Of a DNA stretch of 30,554 nucleotides, positions 1 to 5,827 are shown in pieces. Location of the stretch: the NCBI GenBank assembly GCA_011049495.1, contig DSBF01000034.1:1-30554 (forward strand), in the 5' to 3' direction. The notes beneath the pieces are model-generated. The model was not told where the DNA came from. It did not search any database and worked only from the letters and a program-made list of their open reading frames with translations. Source of the stretch: Ignavibacteria bacterium. GTDB taxonomy: Bacteria > Bacteroidota > Ignavibacteria > Ignavibacteriales > Melioribacteraceae. The translations under genes were made by a program, and so were the position numbers. Each line of letters opens with the position of its first letter. Position 1 is the stretch's first letter.

Positions 1-143
1 AAAGCTTTTTGATCACCCTTCTTGATTTTTTTAGCAAGTTCAATTTCTTCGTCGGCTGTTAGTAAATCTACTTTACCGATTTCCTGCAAATATTTATCTA
101 AGGATTGGCTTTCACGATTTGTAAATTGCTTAGTGATCTTCAA
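1..143 (-). CDS. rpoD: RNA polymerase sigma-70 family factor, RpoD-like, short Bacteroidetes/Chlorobi type lacking region 1.1 (5' part only; runs off window edge)
   Basis: Not in ORF track. Manual translation from TTG at 143-141 gives [47 protein letters not shown], a sigma region 1.2 motif ([21 protein letters not shown]). SD AGGAG lies 7 nt upstream and overlaps the TAG of the preceding gene. Confidence 0.88.
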
Positions 144-153
144 ATGAAAACTC

Positions 154-426
154 CTAATTGATTTCCGAATTAATTGAATCAACAATACCAACAATAGATG
201 CATCAACCGGTGCCATATCAACAGAAAGCGGAATTACCGCTTCGCTTGCGGTTATATAAAAAACAATTTCACCGGGACCTGCACCAATTGTATCTAATGC
301 AACTATTGGTCTGCCAATATTTTCTTTTTTAGAATTTATCGGTTGAACAAATTGCATTTTATAATTCTTCACCGAATCATACTTTCGAGTAGCCCAGATA
401 GTTCCTATAACTTTACCAAGTATCAT
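154..426 (-). CDS. EutN/CcmL family bacterial microcompartment vertex (BMC-P pentamer) protein, paralog 2
   Basis: 90 aa. [15 protein letters not shown]-terminus, [14 protein letters not shown] core and [12 protein letters not shown]-terminus are typical of BMC-P. Confidence 0.93.
401..417. repeat. 17-bp exact direct repeat shared by the 5' ends of the two BMC-P genes (second copy at 705-721)
   Basis: gttcctataactttacc occurs at 401-417 and 705-721 and encodes GKVIGT in both genes. Confidence 0.8.
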
Positions 427-430
427 TAAA

Positions 431-730
431 TTAATTCTTTAAAGTTTCTTGAAGATTATCTTTAACGCTAACATCTAATTTATCAACAATAGCCATTATT
501 ACGGCATCGACAGGTTTGTTTTTGGTAATATTTGTTTGTCTTGCCGAACTGCCCAGTGCGGCAAGAACAATTTCGCCAACACCGGCTCCAACGGAATCAA
601 CTGCAACAACAAAATTTTTGAGTGGTTTATAATCGAGATCTAATTCCCGGACAATTAAAAATTTTGCGCCGACTAAATTTTCATCTTTACGAGTTGACCA
701 AACTGTTCCTATAACTTTACCTAATAACAC
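431..730 (-). CDS. EutN/CcmL family bacterial microcompartment vertex (BMC-P pentamer) protein, paralog 1
   Basis: 99 aa, GTG start, SD GAGGTGA overlapping the PIN stop. Motifs LGKVIGTVWSTRKD, VAVDSVGAGVGEIVL, GSSAR and PVDAVIMAIVD. Confidence 0.95.
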   Translation of the reverse strand: MLLGKVIGTVWSTRKDENLVGAKFLIVRELDLDYKPLKNFVVAVDSVGAGVGEIVLAALGSSARQTNITKNKPVDAVIMAIVDKLDVSVKDNLQETLKN

Positions 731-738
731 TAATCACC

Positions 739-1125
739 TCACAAATTATTTGGATCAATTATTTTAATTCCGGTTAAAGAATATTTTTCCTTGTTATAAG
801 TTACAATCGGCAACTTGCTGATTTTTGCCGTTGCACAAAATAAAGCGTCTCTTACAGAATCAACTTTATCAATAAACTCATTAACCAACAAACTGTAACG
901 AGAATGAAAACCAAGAACATTAACCGAACGCATTAGTGCATCAACTAACTTTTTTTCTTCTTTTTTTCGAGAAGCAAAATATAACTCAGCGGAATTTATA
1001 ACAGTTGTAAAACAAATTCCACATTCCATAACTTTTTCTAAATCGGATTTTGTATTTTTTTCATGTGTTAAATGCTGAAATAAAACATCCGTATCAATCA
1101 TATATTCATTTTTCTTATTGCTCAT
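739..1125 (-). CDS. PIN-domain (VapC-like) protein, putative ribonuclease
   Basis: 128 aa with PIN motif order YMIDTDVL ... TTVINSAELY ... RDALFCATA ... PIVTYN. The first three acidic positions are kept; the fourth is Asn. Confidence 0.8.
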   Translation of the reverse strand: MSNKKNEYMIDTDVLFQHLTHEKNTKSDLEKVMECGICFTTVINSAELYFASRKKEEKKLVDALMRSVNVLGFHSRYSLLVNEFIDKVDSVRDALFCATAKISKLPIVTYNKEKYSLTGIKIIDPNNL

Positions 1126-1415
1126 ACAATAATTCTTTTAACAAAATCTGAATTTTTTAATTCCCCTTTTGAAATAAGAAAATCAAGAACAACGGCATCG
1201 GGCAAGGACTGCATTTCTTTTATTTTTACAAATGAGTGCAGATTAATTTTATTACTTATGGTAATTTTATTTTTATTATCAATACTTTCTGCGCTTGCTT
1301 CAACTATGCCTTTATTAACCAATGAGTTTATCTTTTCCTGCAGACCTGTAATGTTGCCTTCTTTATCCGGCACAAATTTGAAACCTTCCAAGAGAAACAA
1401 AAGAGAATCATTCAT
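1122..1415 (-). CDS. Hypothetical protein, 97 aa (possible PIN partner/antitoxin)
   Basis: ATG ORF overlapping the deoB stop by 8 nt and the PIN start by 4 nt (ATGA). I recognise no family. Confidence 0.7.
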   Translation of the reverse strand: MNDSLLFLLEGFKFVPDKEGNITGLQEKINSLVNKGIVEASAESIDNKNKITISNKINLHSFVKIKEMQSLPDAVVLDFLISKGELKNSDFVKRIIV

Positions 1416-2571
1416 TTAGAAAACTACTGCCCGATAAATTATTATTGATTTTGTAAAAATGAGCAACGGTTTGAGCCGCATCGGAAAATGTTTTCCTAAT
1501 TCCCAAATTTCTTCCGGCTTTGTTTTTCCGATAGAAAAGTAAAGGTACGTATTCTCTACTATGATCGGTACTTGGGGTAGTTGGATCATTACCATGATCA
1601 GCCGTTATAATTAATGCATCGGTTTCGTCCAGGTTTTCAAGAAAACTTGGAAGCCAATCATCGAATTCCCTAAGGGCGTTATAAAATCCAACCGTATCAT
1701 TTCGATGACCAAAGTATACATCAAAATCGACTAAGTTTATAAACACAAAGCTATTCTTCACGGCGCTTGTATAATGAATAAGTTTCGACATGCCCTCGGA
1801 ATTACTTTTGGCTTTTTCATTTACATCAATCCCGTTGTAATTAAAGAGATCACTTATCTTCCCGATTGCAATTGTTTGTATGTTATTCTGCTGAAGATAA
1901 TTCAGTATTGTATCTGAGGGAGGATTAAGCGAAAAATCTTTCCTGTTTGTTGTTCGATTGAAGTTACCCGGTTCGCCGATAAAAGGTCTGGCAATTACTC
2001 TTCCTACTGTATGTTGCCCTACTAAAACTTTATCGCGGGCAATTTGACAAATTTCGTATAGTCTTTCAACCGGAATAACATCTTCATGAGCGGCAATTTG
2101 AAAAACTGAATCCGCAGAAGTATAAACAATTGGGTAACCTGTCTTTACATGTTCAACACCGAGTTCATCAATAATTGCAGTTCCCGATGCCGGTTTATTG
2201 CCTAAAATTCCACTTACATTAGCTGCTTGTTTAAAATTTTCAACTACATCTTCCGGGAATCCGTTCGGATAATATGGAAAATCAAAATCAAGTTTAAGTC
2301 CGGCAATTTCCCAATGCCCCGTTGTGGAATCTTTTCCTTTAGACACTTCCTGCATTTTACCGTATGAAGCGAGAGGTTTAACTGACGGGGGGAGACCACT
2401 AATTTCAATTATGTTTCCTAAACCGAGCGATTGAAGGTTAGGGAGATTAAACTCTCCAATATGCTTTGCAATATTGGCAATGGTGTTGCTTCCTTCGTCG
2501 CCGTAATTACCGGCATCCGGCAATTCACCAACACCGACACCGTCAAGAATTATTATAAAAAAATTATTCAT
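1408..2571 (-). CDS. deoB: Phosphopentomutase
   Basis: 387 aa. Motifs IILDGVGVGELPDA..YGDEGSNT, GKDSTTGHWEIAG, YTSADSVFQIAAHE, RVIARPF, NLVDFD..FGHRND and TADHGNDPT..STDHSREYVP. Confidence 0.96.
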   Translation of the reverse strand: MNNFFIIILDGVGVGELPDAGNYGDEGSNTIANIAKHIGEFNLPNLQSLGLGNIIEISGLPPSVKPLASYGKMQEVSKGKDSTTGHWEIAGLKLDFDFPYYPNGFPEDVVENFKQAANVSGILGNKPASGTAIIDELGVEHVKTGYPIVYTSADSVFQIAAHEDVIPVERLYEICQIARDKVLVGQHTVGRVIARPFIGEPGNFNRTTNRKDFSLNPPSDTILNYLQQNNIQTIAIGKISDLFNYNGIDVNEKAKSNSEGMSKLIHYTSAVKNSFVFINLVDFDVYFGHRNDTVGFYNALREFDDWLPSFLENLDETDALIITADHGNDPTTPSTDHSREYVPLLFYRKNKAGRNLGIRKTFSDAAQTVAHFYKINNNLSGSSFLNE

Positions 2572-2573
2572 AA

Positions 2574-4481
2574 TTAATTTATACTCTTTACTGAATTTCC
2601 CCCTTTTTCAAGGGCTTTATTTAAGGCTAAGTTGGCATCACTTAATACAAGTTCAACATCGGTTTTATGTGACGCCGATGCAACACCAATCGATACAGTA
2701 AATGTTGTTTGTTTTGTTACAACTGCAATCGGTTTACGAGCAATTTTTATTCGTAACTTTTCGGACCATAAAAAAACATCTTTAGTAGTTGCATTAAAAA
2801 AGTAAACAGCAAATACTCGTTCATCCAAACGCCCGAATAAATTCAAAGGAGTAATTTCCTCGCGTATTGTATTAGCAATGGATTTTAGAACTTTCGGGAA
2901 AGGATTTCCTTCAAACAAAGAATCCTCTTCAATGAAATCGTCAATTTTAATTAAAGCAATTGCACCTTCGGCATTTAATTCATTCGCTTTAAATAAATCA
3001 TTTCTAAGTTGAGAAATAAATGCAGTGCTATTTAAAGCCCTTGTTTCAATATCAACCGATAAAAGAGATTTCAATATTTTCTGTGTAGAATAAGAATGCA
3101 CCATAAATGAAAATATCTTTGTCGATTGTTTCATGAATTGAACATCTTCAGTTGTATATAAATTTTTCTTCAGCGTTTCAAAACATAGTACACCGTAATT
3201 CTGATCATCGTAAACTAAAGGAATAGCGAGAAAAGAACCGTCAAAACTTATGTCTTCACTTTTTGTAAATCTGAAATACTCACCGGAAGAAGTATCATCG
3301 ATCTTAATCGGCATCCCGCTCAGTATGGCTTTTCCTACAATTGTTCCACCTAATTCAACTTCAAGATTTTCACCTATATATTTAAGTGTAGTTCTATTAA
3401 TAATTTTTGATGTTCTGAATTTTTGATCGGCAGGGTCGAAGTAAACAAAAGTAAAAGCACTCCAAGGAATTAATTCTGCAACTGCAGATTCCAACATATC
3501 AAAAAGTTCTTTCTCGTTGCTGAACCGTCTATCAATATTTAATACACCCAATAAAGATTTTAATCTTTGTTCGGCTTGCGATTCGGAAAATTTTTCTTCG
3601 AACAACGAAATTATTATTGATAGAACTCTTACAAATCTTCCCAAAGAATAAATAGTTTCTATCCCGAATGCATCATTTACCTTAGAGTCTAATGCAAGCA
3701 CACCGGCAAGTGATTTGCCATAGAATAAGGGAACACCAACAAAACTTTTTATACCCTGCTTAGAATTATAATAGCGAATAACATCTTTTTCTGCAGTAGA
3801 TGAAATATCAGTTAGTAGTTCCGGTTCTTCTTTTTTAACAATCTTACTTAATATGTCGTCTTCAATATCAAATTTTTGTTCCGTAATAAACTCACCGGAA
3901 CTAGAAACGAATTTCTCGAGTGTCAACCTTTCTTTATTTTTATTATACCAGAAGAAAATTGAAGTATGAGCCATAAATGCTTCTTTTACGACATTTAAAA
4001 TCTTTTCGAGGACAAAAGCAAACTGTTCATCATGAGATACGTTTTCAGGAAGTTCTTCTGTAGCAATAAATTCAAAATTTTGTTTCAGGTCTTGCGGTTT
4101 AAAAAAGTCTCTATTCTTAGAGACATTATCGCTAGGCACATAGTTTTCGCTAGTTATAACTTCAATTTTTTTTGTAGGGGAAACAATTTTAAAATCTTCT
4201 CCGTCATCAACTTCAAAAACGGATTTTGATTTTACGGAAGGTGTTTGTATCTCAACTTCATCGGATAATGAATCTTCAACAGTATTACTAAAAGATTCTT
4301 CTCTTACCGAATCGCGTAAGAAGATTATGAATCCAACATAAAGTACGAGTATAGCGGCGGTTATAATTTTTAGGACGAGATCATCTGCAAGAAACAGAAT
4401 TGTAATCAATACAGGAATAAGTGAAAATATCAAGATACGCTTTCTATTACGAATACTTATTCCCATAAAATTTTTTTGCAA
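2574..4481 (-). CDS. Membrane-anchored tandem-GAF protein with C-terminal degenerate GGDEF domain
   Basis: Two N-terminal hydrophobic segments, an acidic linker, and two GAF-like regions (SFVGVPL..GVLALDS; SFLAIPL..GVLCFET). The GGDEF-fold C-terminus (TVSIGVA, ANLALNKA..GGN) has RLDERVF in place of RxGG[D/E]EF. Start is TTG at 4481 or ATG at 4466. Confidence 0.8.
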   Translation of the reverse strand: MQKNFMGISIRNRKRILIFSLIPVLITILFLADDLVLKIITAAILVLYVGFIIFLRDSVREESFSNTVEDSLSDEVEIQTPSVKSKSVFEVDDGEDFKIVSPTKKIEVITSENYVPSDNVSKNRDFFKPQDLKQNFEFIATEELPENVSHDEQFAFVLEKILNVVKEAFMAHTSIFFWYNKNKERLTLEKFVSSSGEFITEQKFDIEDDILSKIVKKEEPELLTDISSTAEKDVIRYYNSKQGIKSFVGVPLFYGKSLAGVLALDSKVNDAFGIETIYSLGRFVRVLSIIISLFEEKFSESQAEQRLKSLLGVLNIDRRFSNEKELFDMLESAVAELIPWSAFTFVYFDPADQKFRTSKIINRTTLKYIGENLEVELGGTIVGKAILSGMPIKIDDTSSGEYFRFTKSEDISFDGSFLAIPLVYDDQNYGVLCFETLKKNLYTTEDVQFMKQSTKIFSFMVHSYSTQKILKSLLSVDIETRALNSTAFISQLRNDLFKANELNAEGAIALIKIDDFIEEDSLFEGNPFPKVLKSIANTIREEITPLNLFGRLDERVFAVYFFNATTKDVFLWSEKLRIKIARKPIAVVTKQTTFTVSIGVASASHKTDVELVLSDANLALNKALEKGGNSVKSIN

Positions 4482-4504
4482 TAATTAGTTGAAAAAGGCG
4501 ATGT

Positions 4505-4533
4505 ATTATAACAAAAGTTCAGTTAAATGTCAT
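4505..4533 (-). promoter_or_regulatory. Sigma70-type promoter heading the GAF-deoB-PIN-BMC-rpoD gene run
   Basis: Minus strand reads ATGACA (4533-4528), 17-nt spacer, TATAAT (4510-4505), with extended -10 TGn. Lies in the yihA/GAF intergenic region. Confidence 0.7.
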
Positions 4534-5114
4534 CAATAGAAGAGCTTACGAAGTCTGTTTACAATCTCTTTTTTCCCAGTTCCTTTCACTGCAGAGTGGA
4601 GCAGTAAATTATCCCCAAACGATACTTCCGGGAAGTATTCTAAAATTTCACTTTTACGTTTTGCTATTTCGCCTTGCTTAAGTTTATCAACTTTGTTTAG
4701 AATAATTGTAAAAGGAATATCGAGTGAGCTTAAAAAATCATTTAATACGATGTCAAGTTCGGTAGGATGATGACGTGCATCAATAAGATGAAACACAGTA
4801 ACTATTTGTCTTGAAGCTTGCAGGTATTCACCAATCAGCTTCTGCCATTTTTCCCTTTCCGTTCTAGAAACTTTTGCATATCCAAAACCCGGCAGGTCTA
4901 CAACATAAAATTTCTCATCAACAATGTAGTAGTTTATTGTTTTTGTTTTCCCGGGTGATGAACTTATCTTTGCAATATTTTTTCTACCGAAGATATTATT
5001 TATAAACGAAGATTTACCAACATTTGATCTGCCTGCTAAAACAATTTCTGGTAAGATCAACTTCGGAAGTTGATTTACTTTTGCAACAGATTTTATGAAT
5101 GAAATATTTTTCAT
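4533..5114 (-). CDS. yihA: Ribosome biogenesis GTP-binding protein YihA/YsxC (EngB)
   Basis: G1 GRSNVGKSS, G2 SSSPGKT, G3 DLPGFG, G4 NKVD. The likely start is ATG 5114 (MKNISF); the ORF track uses an in-frame TTG at 5132. Confidence 0.95.
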   Translation of the reverse strand: MKNISFIKSVAKVNQLPKLILPEIVLAGRSNVGKSSFINNIFGRKNIAKISSSPGKTKTINYYIVDEKFYVVDLPGFGYAKVSRTEREKWQKLIGEYLQASRQIVTVFHLIDARHHPTELDIVLNDFLSSLDIPFTIILNKVDKLKQGEIAKRKSEILEYFPEVSFGDNLLLHSAVKGTGKKEIVNRLRKLFY

Positions 5115-5118
5115 AGAT

Positions 5119-5151
5119 AAAAAAAAGAGCAACCGCTTGGTTACTCTTTTT
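5119..5151 (-). terminator. Intrinsic terminator downstream of rplQ
   Basis: Minus strand: AAAAA-GAGTAACC-AAGC-GGTTGCTC-TTTTTTTT. This is an 8-bp stem with one G-U pair, a 4-nt loop and a U8 tract. The A-tract on the other side makes it potentially bidirectional. Confidence 0.8.
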
Positions 5152-5176
5152 GCTTTAAAATCAATTTATGAACAAT

Positions 5177-5827
5177 CTATTTATCTTCTTTTTCTTCGGC
5201 AGCACTTTCATCAGTTTCGGAATCGGTTTTTTCTTCAGCAGTTTCAGATTTTACTTCTTCCTTTACTTCTTTTTTTGATTCTTCCGATTTCTTTTTAGAA
5301 GATGTTTTACGTTTGGTTGTTTCCTTTTCTGCTTTTTCTTCTTTATTGTCTTCTATAACTTCTGCTTCCTCGGCTTCTTCTTTCTTCGGAGCTTTTTTAG
5401 ATTTCTTTGCCTTTGCCTCTTCGGCAGTTTTTGATTCTTTAGTTTCTTTCTTTTTGGGAGCTGCAATTTCATTATAGTCAACAAGTTCAATAATTGCTAA
5501 TTCGGCAGCATCACCGGCTCTATATCCAAGCTTCACAACTCTTGTATAACCACCGGGACGATCACCGATTTTTTCTACAATTTCCGAGAATAATTCTTTC
5601 AGCACTTCTTTATCTTTAACAAATCGAGCAACATATCGTCTTGCACTTAGATCATTTTTCTTTGCTTTTGTAATCAATGGTTCAACAAATCTTTTGGTTT
5701 CTTTAGCCTTAGCAAGAGTTGTCTTAATTTTTTTATGTCTCAAAAGCTGAGTAGCCAATGCATTTAATGTAGCTAATCTGTGGCTGGCTGTTCTACCTAA
5801 TTTTCTACCTTTAACTCTATGTCTCAT
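5177..5827 (-). CDS. rplQ: 50S ribosomal protein L17 with long Lys/Glu-rich C-terminal tail
   Basis: MRHRVKGRKLGRTASHR...GGYTRVVKLG.R.GDAA core (about 120 aa) plus about 96 aa of low-complexity tail. Confidence 0.98.
   Translation of the reverse strand: MRHRVKGRKLGRTASHRLATLNALATQLLRHKKIKTTLAKAKETKRFVEPLITKAKKNDLSARRYVARFVKDKEVLKELFSEIVEKIGDRPGGYTRVVKLGYRAGDAAELAIIELVDYNEIAAPKKKETKESKTAEEAKAKKSKKAPKKEEAEEAEVIEDNKEEKAEKETTKRKTSSKKKSEESKKEVKEEVKSETAEEKTDSETDESAAEEKEDK

Follow-up and report, generated by a model that had tools for sequence, protein, structure and literature searches.

Two BMC-P genes that fit the FRAG1 microcompartment precede rpoD in a conserved, probably housekeeping gene array of Ignavibacteria

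The window analysed here is a 30,554-nucleotide stretch of DNA from an Ignavibacteria bacterium (GenBank assembly GCA_011049495.1, contig DSBF01000034.1). It comprises the entire 30.5-kb contig C1 of a 592-contig metagenome-assembled genome (MAG), and every long open reading frame (ORF) in it lies on the minus strand. At its low-coordinate end, seven genes follow one another, among them two genes for bacterial microcompartment (BMC) vertex proteins placed directly before rpoD. The first gene (2574..4466) encodes a membrane-anchored GAF-GAF protein with a degenerate GGDEF domain (Pfam GAF_2, E = 1.5e-20; GGDEF, E = 1.8e-11), referred to below as the GGDEF-like protein. It is followed by the phosphopentomutase gene deoB (1408..2571; NF003766, 531 bits against a cut-off of 256), a 97-aa ORF without a Pfam match (1122..1415) that is the putative antitoxin partner of the next gene, and a gene for a VapC-like PIN-domain protein (739..1125; PF01850, E = 2.7e-08). 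BMC-P1, an EutN/CcmL vertex protein (431..730; PF03319, E = 7.4e-31), and BMC-P2 (154..426; PF03319, E = 1.1e-26) come next. Last is the 5' end of rpoD (1..143; Sigma70_r1_2, E = 5.1e-17), encoding a short Bacteroidota-type primary sigma factor; it starts at a TTG at position 143 and is truncated by the end of the contig, the remainder lying at the end of contig C9. An earlier note on this DNA, made from the sequence alone, had described seven co-oriented genes and named their families; the ORF coordinates agree exactly with the junctions it gave, and assignment with Pfam and NCBIfam confirmed the families.

All six junctions are on the same strand and range from -8 to +10 nt, an operon-like packing. 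The GGDEF-like gene is separated from deoB by 2 nt, deoB overlaps the 97-aa ORF by 8 nt, and the 97-aa ORF overlaps the PIN gene by 4 nt (ATGA); gaps of 8, 4 and 10 nt follow at PIN–BMC-P1, BMC-P1–BMC-P2 and BMC-P2–rpoD, respectively. Shine-Dalgarno sequences were said to sit within upstream stop codons, and this is seen at two junctions: TGAGGTGA overlaps the stop codon of PIN before BMC-P1, and AGGAG overlaps the TAG stop of BMC-P2 before rpoD (TAGGAG). The Shine-Dalgarno sequence before rpoD and the TTG/GTG start are conserved among orthologous loci. Loci of the order begin rpoD with TTG or GTG immediately at KITKQ, those of other classes with ATG-R-Q-L-K-I-S-K-Q, as in Bacteroidetes. The conserved start of the GGDEF-like gene is the ATG at 4466, not the TTG at 4481.

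Gene order, whose loss among close relatives had been named as a way to refute the proposed unit, is kept. BMC-P1–BMC-P2–rpoD are adjacent in 26/26 genomes of the order, which represent four families. Within the reach of their contigs, all 26 loci read rpoA–rplQ–engB–GGDEF-like–deoB–[97-aa/PIN in 12]–BMC-P1–BMC-P2–rpoD, and the following rpoD–NlpC/P60 linkage is likewise kept in every one. The gap between BMC-P2 and rpoD is -4 to 21 nt in 24/26 of these loci, so rpoD there cannot have an intergenic promoter. Thirteen further families of the class contributed 20 loci, of which 19 have the BMC-P1–BMC-P2–rpoD triad; the GGDEF-like gene lies upstream in 19 and deoB in 14, while the engB/ribosomal-protein link is retained in one family only. 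The triad is adjacent in 12 of 17 loci from other classes of the phylum; four of the others, all from family f50, keep deoB–BMC-P–BMC-P with rpoD 4 kb off, and one has no nearby rpoD. In family f50, an opposite-strand pcm and a GH3-family gene lie between BMC-P2 and rpoD; these are unrelated insertions. A set of 80 named loci covered Melioribacteraceae, Ignavibacteriaceae, Stygiobacter electus 09-Me, Kryptoniota, Rhodothermales and LCP-89, as well as MAGs labelled Ignavibacterium album and Melioribacter roseus. BMC-P–BMC-P–rpoD is found in 71 of the 79 that are readable; the remaining eight, from Rhodothermales, LCP-89 and others, show deoB–BMC-P–BMC-P or only the BMC-P pair. BMC-P2 always stands in tandem after BMC-P1. 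The corresponding locus tags of M. roseus are MROS_0188 for L17, 0187 for YsxC, 0186 for a 'diguanylate cyclase', 0180 for RpoD and 0179 for spr (PMC5492636 Table S2).

The genes between the two ends of this array are gained and lost independently. PIN is sporadic (12/26 order-level and 31/80 named loci), and the 97-aa ORF occurs only where PIN is present. deoB is missing from 6/20 class-level loci outside the order. Four genomes of the same order without the BMC-P pair keep rpoA–rplQ–engB–GGDEF-like–deoB–rpoD, and the locus of genome G014 is reduced to GGDEF-like–rpoD. These patterns point to a persistent GGDEF-like…rpoD backbone that would carry optional inserts.

Presence of the BMC-P pair follows that of other shell genes. 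Genomes with the pair have a canonical BMC-H pair in 32/32 cases and a BMC-T gene in 30/32. Of the four array-keeping genomes just mentioned, three lack any canonical BMC-H or BMC-T gene (no BMC-domain match in G014 or G031, one weak match in G005), and G040 carries a different BMC locus with 10 BMC-domain matches and a single BMC-P gene. Of the other pair-less genomes sampled, G029 lacks BMC-H; G030, G032, G035 and G038 have only a divergent BMC-H pair; and G017 (95% complete) has the canonical BMC-H pair. From the co-occurrence with BMC-H and BMC-T it follows that the BMC-P pair goes with the other shell genes rather than with the sensor-like gene, deoB or rpoD. As a separate observation, five genomes of the order (G030, G032, G035, G038 and G040) have a divergent BMC-H pair (E values of 1e-16 to 1e-20) and no FRAG1 BMC-P pair. 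The first four are without any BMC-P gene and in G040 the sole BMC-P gene belongs to its distinct BMC locus, so that these divergent pairs look like hexamer genes without vertex genes.

Such independent loss argues against an obligate seven-gene system. The earlier note had proposed a co-transcribed, translationally coupled unit that would tie the recycling of nucleotides and the capping of microcompartments to expression of the sigma factor. Read as one dedicated regulatory-metabolic system, it would have a sensor, nucleoside salvage, an RNase and the vertex proteins together controlling, or depending on, that expression. Tight coupling at the junctions and the very wide conservation of GGDEF-like–…–BMC-P–BMC-P–rpoD speak for it. 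Against it, the modules come and go: PIN is patchy, deoB drops out, the BMC-P pair is lost from otherwise intact arrays and it tracks other shell genes of its microcompartment type. No interaction is predicted or known, and no sign of joint action by the seven gene products was seen. We consider a system of this kind very unlikely.

Nor do the seven genes form a closed unit, as had been supposed, since engB lies 51 nt upstream of the GGDEF-like gene and an NlpC/P60 gene begins 5 nt past the rpoD stop codon. Upstream, the rpoB/C–S10–spc–alpha ribosomal-protein supercluster (5177-30554, minus strand) ends in rpoA and rplQ. A strong intrinsic terminator after rplQ (5122..5151, minus strand), with a 13-bp stem, a 4-nt loop and a T-run, closes the ribosomal-protein alpha operon. 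The ATG of engB/ysxC, a ribosome-biogenesis GTPase gene (4533..5114, minus strand; TIGR03598, E = 2.8e-61), is at 5114, 8 nt past this terminator, and engB is syntenic in every order-level locus whose contig extends that far. The NlpC/P60 gene (spr-like; locus L211, 4708-5379) is on contig C9. Past it, on the same strand, are fumC, a 111-aa ORF and tkt. No terminator-like site was seen on the gene strand between rpoD and NlpC/P60 or along fumC–tkt on this contig. Within the seven genes, too, no terminator is convincing, the only candidates being weak 5-7-bp hairpins within coding sequence (4124-4107, 1479-1463 and 505-492).

The stop codon of engB overlaps the -35-like hexamer of a promoter-like element, ATGACA-17-TG-n-TATAAT (4505..4533, minus strand), which occupies the sole gap of more than 10 nt among these genes. 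The near-consensus extended -10 site reported earlier is indeed the top match in 5.4 kb, with 11/12 positions plus TG, as scored against a consensus that may not be that of the host. The total number of promoter-like matches is below that in shuffled sequence (7, against 20.2 +/- 4.7), so what speaks for a promoter is where the site lies and that it is conserved. Most loci of the same family carry a TTT-nn-TAT(T/A)AT box, with ATGA(A/C)A before it, about 25-32 nt past the engB stop; in other families of the order, boxes of the TATATTTG type stand at the corresponding place past engB.

The Escherichia coli rpsU-dnaG-rpoD operon, which has internal promoters and undergoes processing, offers a precedent for a different arrangement. 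As here, the primary sigma gene is distal in a tight operon of unrelated genes, although the partner genes are entirely different. By analogy, the neighbourhood might persist through inertia near the ribosomal supercluster and be divided into several transcription units, with rpoD expressed mainly from a promoter inside the coding sequence of BMC-P or PIN. Weak promoter-like matches inside the 97-aa ORF (1303-1275) and inside the GGDEF-like gene would suit this explanation, as would the variable gaps upstream of BMC-P1 in other lineages. Gaps of only -8 to +10 nt and Shine-Dalgarno sequences built into stop codons point instead to a polycistronic message; moreover, the engB and NlpC/P60 flanks are lost outside the order while the core adjacency stays. 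On balance we regard this explanation as unlikely, though worth keeping in mind.

The two vertex genes themselves score as ordinary members of their family. Both PF03319 domains are full-length (106.9 and 93.6 bits against a cut-off of 25). BMC-P1 matches the Haliangium ochraceum shell pentamer 5V74 over its full length (E = 3.9e-25), with BMC-P2 also matching solved pentamers, and BMC-P1 is 63-97% identical across the phylum. The genome encodes three PF03319 proteins, two in the window and one on contig C531, and relatives show the same pattern. Contig C580 carries a BMC-H pair, one member of which has a long C-terminal extension, and contig C253 a tandem-domain BMC-T beside a PduS-like gene; Pfam assignment of the orthologues in genome G003 agrees. 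This inventory closely resembles FRAG1, a microcompartment type that Sutter et al. 2021 (Supplementary Data 2) describe as fragmented and made up of nothing but shell genes; it is most prominent in Ignavibacteria and is also found in Kryptonia, Rhodothermaeota and Chlorobi (PMC8217296). Published FRAG1 sets comprise a triplet of BMC-P genes and two BMC-H genes, of which one is extended, and in many cases also a PduS/PduT pair (PMC8217296). Judged by sequence, the BMC-P pair of the window fits two of the three FRAG1 pentamer genes, the shared features being scattered shell-only genes, the BMC-P triplet, the BMC-H pair with its extension and the PduS-like gene. The many BMC-P satellite loci of M. 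roseus had already been noted by Axen et al. 2014 (PMC4207490).

Each of the other FRAG1 shell genes also has a fixed address. The BMC-H pair lies in upp–(TPR)–relA/spoT–ruvX–BMC-H–BMC-H(ext) in 7/7 loci and in the genome studied here (C580), the BMC-T gene in (PP2C phosphatase)–PduS-like–BMC-T in 5/5 loci and here (C253), and the third BMC-P gene in DUF3098–BMC-P3–dprA in 6/6 loci and here (C531). BMC-H1 is 92-99% identical across the order. No signature enzyme or aldehyde dehydrogenase was found beside the shell genes, whose neighbours are housekeeping genes. What differs from the published account of FRAG1 is the fixed place of two BMC-P genes upstream of rpoD: this position, and those of deoB and the GGDEF-like gene, are unmentioned in the main text or text supplement of PMC8217296, and a sigma factor is unmentioned in the texts of PMC8217296 and PMC4207490. 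The earlier claim that no described system has this composition is accordingly right about the position before rpoD, which went unmentioned in the literature searched, and wrong about the BMC-P pair, which fits a described type. Distal shell satellites such as ccmK3/ccmK4 of the beta-carboxysome and the two BMC-P genes of the type I HO microcompartment are similar in that paralogues lie away from other shell genes (PMC8217296), where their separate siting probably serves separate regulation. They differ in that the satellite described here sits within a housekeeping operon, and a 'main' locus is missing altogether.

The proximity of deoB to the vertex genes raises the question of a metabolic tie. 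SPU (sugar-phosphate utilisation) BMCs are proposed to process products of DNA degradation (PMC8217296), and deoB with the BMC-P pair could be a fragment of such a nucleoside or deoxyribose-phosphate catabolic compartment, in which deoB would supply an encapsulated DeoC aldolase with (deoxy)ribose-5-phosphate. The proposed role of SPU BMCs is in its favour, as is the persistence of deoB–BMC-P–BMC-P without an adjacent rpoD or GGDEF-like gene in Rhodothermales, LCP-89 and family f50. Yet several lineages that keep the BMC-P pair have no deoB at the locus, and genomes that have lost the pair still have deoB. No DeoC-family gene (PF01791) comes closer than 13 kb to a shell gene, and G031, which has no shell genes, has one too. 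The shell genes are not accompanied by the DeoC and metabolosome core that characterise SPU loci, and the phosphotransacylase PduL was not found in five relatives. An SPU-like origin is in our view improbable.

A second possibility is that the BMC-P paralogues have been co-opted for a sigma-connected job outside a shell. The unusual conservation of BMC-P1 (63-97% across classes) and the invariant position before rpoD could be read in this way. The ordinary full-length BMC-P scores and the match to shell pentamer 5V74 speak instead for a normal vertex protein, as do the canonical BMC-H genes in all 32 pair-bearing genomes and the want of any shell gene in several pair-less ones. Co-option is extremely improbable.

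Taken together, the evidence indicates that the window probably shows part of an extended housekeeping array, conserved and co-directional, with FRAG1 vertex genes in it, and not a single new functional system. The array would run rpoA–rplQ | engB | GAF/dead-GGDEF–deoB–(97-aa/PIN)–BMC-P–BMC-P–rpoD–NlpC/P60. Transcription would restart after the rplQ terminator at the conserved promoter just past engB and continue through the tightly coupled genes. Being without an intergenic promoter, rpoD would be transcribed through both BMC-P genes, although promoters inside upstream ORFs may contribute. The backbone would be the GGDEF-like gene followed by rpoD, with deoB, the VapBC-like pair and the BMC-P pair as dispensable modules between them. 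Placement of the BMC-P genes in this array would tie their expression to transcription of rpoD and give constitutive, housekeeping-level production of vertex protein.

Several observations weigh against this reading. The first concerns the promoter. TATAAT is depleted upstream of genes genome-wide (156 occurrences against 282 in shuffles), and TAnnTTTG, CTATTTT, TAATTTG and TAttTT-type words peak at -50 to -30, in a count over 848 ORF-free upstream regions of about 70% A+T for which k-mer and position weight matrix attempts were noisy. The depletion of TATAAT and the peak of TAnnTTTG make the -10 reading of the box uncertain. The word peaks suggest a Bacteroidota-like -7 box in this Ignavibacteria genome, and the promoter-like element may be read by a Bacteroidota-like sigma factor. 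Second, lineages without PIN have 50-410 nt before BMC-P1, which is room for a separate promoter; no shared box upstream of BMC-P1 was seen in those intergenic regions. Third, the constancy of BMC-P–BMC-P–rpoD across classes while the flanks change exceeds what hitch-hiking would lead one to expect, and leaves room for a functional tie. Finally, the RNA-labelled data that would bear on co-transcription are unusable. In four runs labelled as metatranscriptomes (X1-X4), contigs of an approximately 98% identical strain bridge every junction, and one 4.75-kb contig reaches from the GGDEF-like gene across rpoD to a point 1.2 kb outside the window. Contigs as long as 100-218 kb also occur in these runs, and depth stays flat at ~8 whether over ribosomal-protein genes or over PIN; the runs therefore contain genomic DNA, and the junction-spanning contigs were rejected as proof of a transcript. 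In a separate observation, contigs of all four runs break at the rplQ stop codon (window 5175-5180), and the loose ends of 21-24 nt left there look like reverse complements of one another, perhaps owing to a strain-variable or hairpin-prone site beside the terminator.

The rpoD gene after the BMC-P pair is the only RpoD-like gene in genomes G034, G027 and G194, so the gene here is the housekeeping sigma factor. Genomes of family f1, including the one studied (C99:3215-4072), have a second RpoD-like paralogue of about 77% identity that is absent from G034, G027 and G194. In locus L063 (G028), two tandem rpoD-like N-termini follow the BMC-P pair, which may be a local duplication.

Data from M. 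roseus are consistent with constitutive expression. Membrane-fraction proteomics detected the BMC-H proteins MROS_1898 and MROS_1899, the GGDEF-like MROS_0186, RpoD MROS_0180 and spr MROS_0179 (PMC5492636 Table S2), all but spr being found under both acetate respiration and maltose fermentation (PMC5492636). For spr, two replicates in one triplet are zero (PMC5492636), and the small BMC-P proteins are unlisted in the proteome table (PMC5492636 Table S2). A more far-reaching and decidedly speculative idea, to which we give a low probability, is that FRAG1 is a constitutive organelle coupled to growth state. Its vertex genes would be obligatorily co-transcribed with the primary sigma factor and its hexamer genes with relA/spoT–ruvX, the recurrence of deoB beside them would hint at pentose-phosphate or nucleoside substrates, and the conserved membrane GAF/dead-GGDEF protein upstream of rpoD might tune the unit.

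FRAG-type microcompartments have been called enigmatic, with shell genes only (PMC8217296), and have been without identified cargo or locus logic; their fragmentation now shows a pattern. The apparently new element is that FRAG1 shell genes have fixed places within housekeeping operons (those of rpoD, relA–ruvX and dprA), an arrangement of which we found no earlier description. Such operons would be constitutive rather than substrate-induced. The address of the vertex genes before the housekeeping sigma gene spans Ignavibacteria, Kryptoniota-labelled MAGs and other classes of Bacteroidota, and the membrane GAF/pseudo-GGDEF protein is flagged as a persistent upstream partner of rpoD in the lineage. 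Predictions arising from this arrangement are testable in cultured M. roseus, I. album and S. electus.

That partner is a protein of 630 aa with two N-terminal hydrophobic helices (read by eye), two GAF domains and a GGDEF domain. The description 'pseudo-GGDEF' proved apt. In place of the active-site signature GG(D/E)EF, the aligned position reads DERVF; the motif is degenerate and variable in 48/48 orthologues aligned, only the preceding R and the F being conserved across them.

The 97-aa/PIN pair resembles a toxin-antitoxin insert and would be like type II VapBC systems in having a small upstream ORF that overlaps PIN by ATGA and in being patchy among close relatives. It differs from them in that the 97-aa partner belongs to no known antitoxin family and, in this array, the pair lacks its own intergenic promoter. 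The 97-aa protein matches neither a Pfam family nor a recognisable antitoxin family. A winged-helix identity was considered and set aside, as the structure-atlas leads were sub-threshold (scores of at most 0.78, below 0.8; TM scores of at most 0.41) and unreliable. Prediction of a complex between PIN and the 97-aa protein gave a score of 0.00 with a partner pLDDT of ~38, which is evidence neither for nor against binding.

A further small gene is seen between the GGDEF-like gene and BMC-P1, in the BMC-P1 upstream gap, of six loci from other families or classes (L077, L078 and L084-L087). There, a conserved ORF of about 70 aa, beginning MAKNQFADK… and containing CxxC…CxC motifs that are zinc-ribbon-like, fills the gap.

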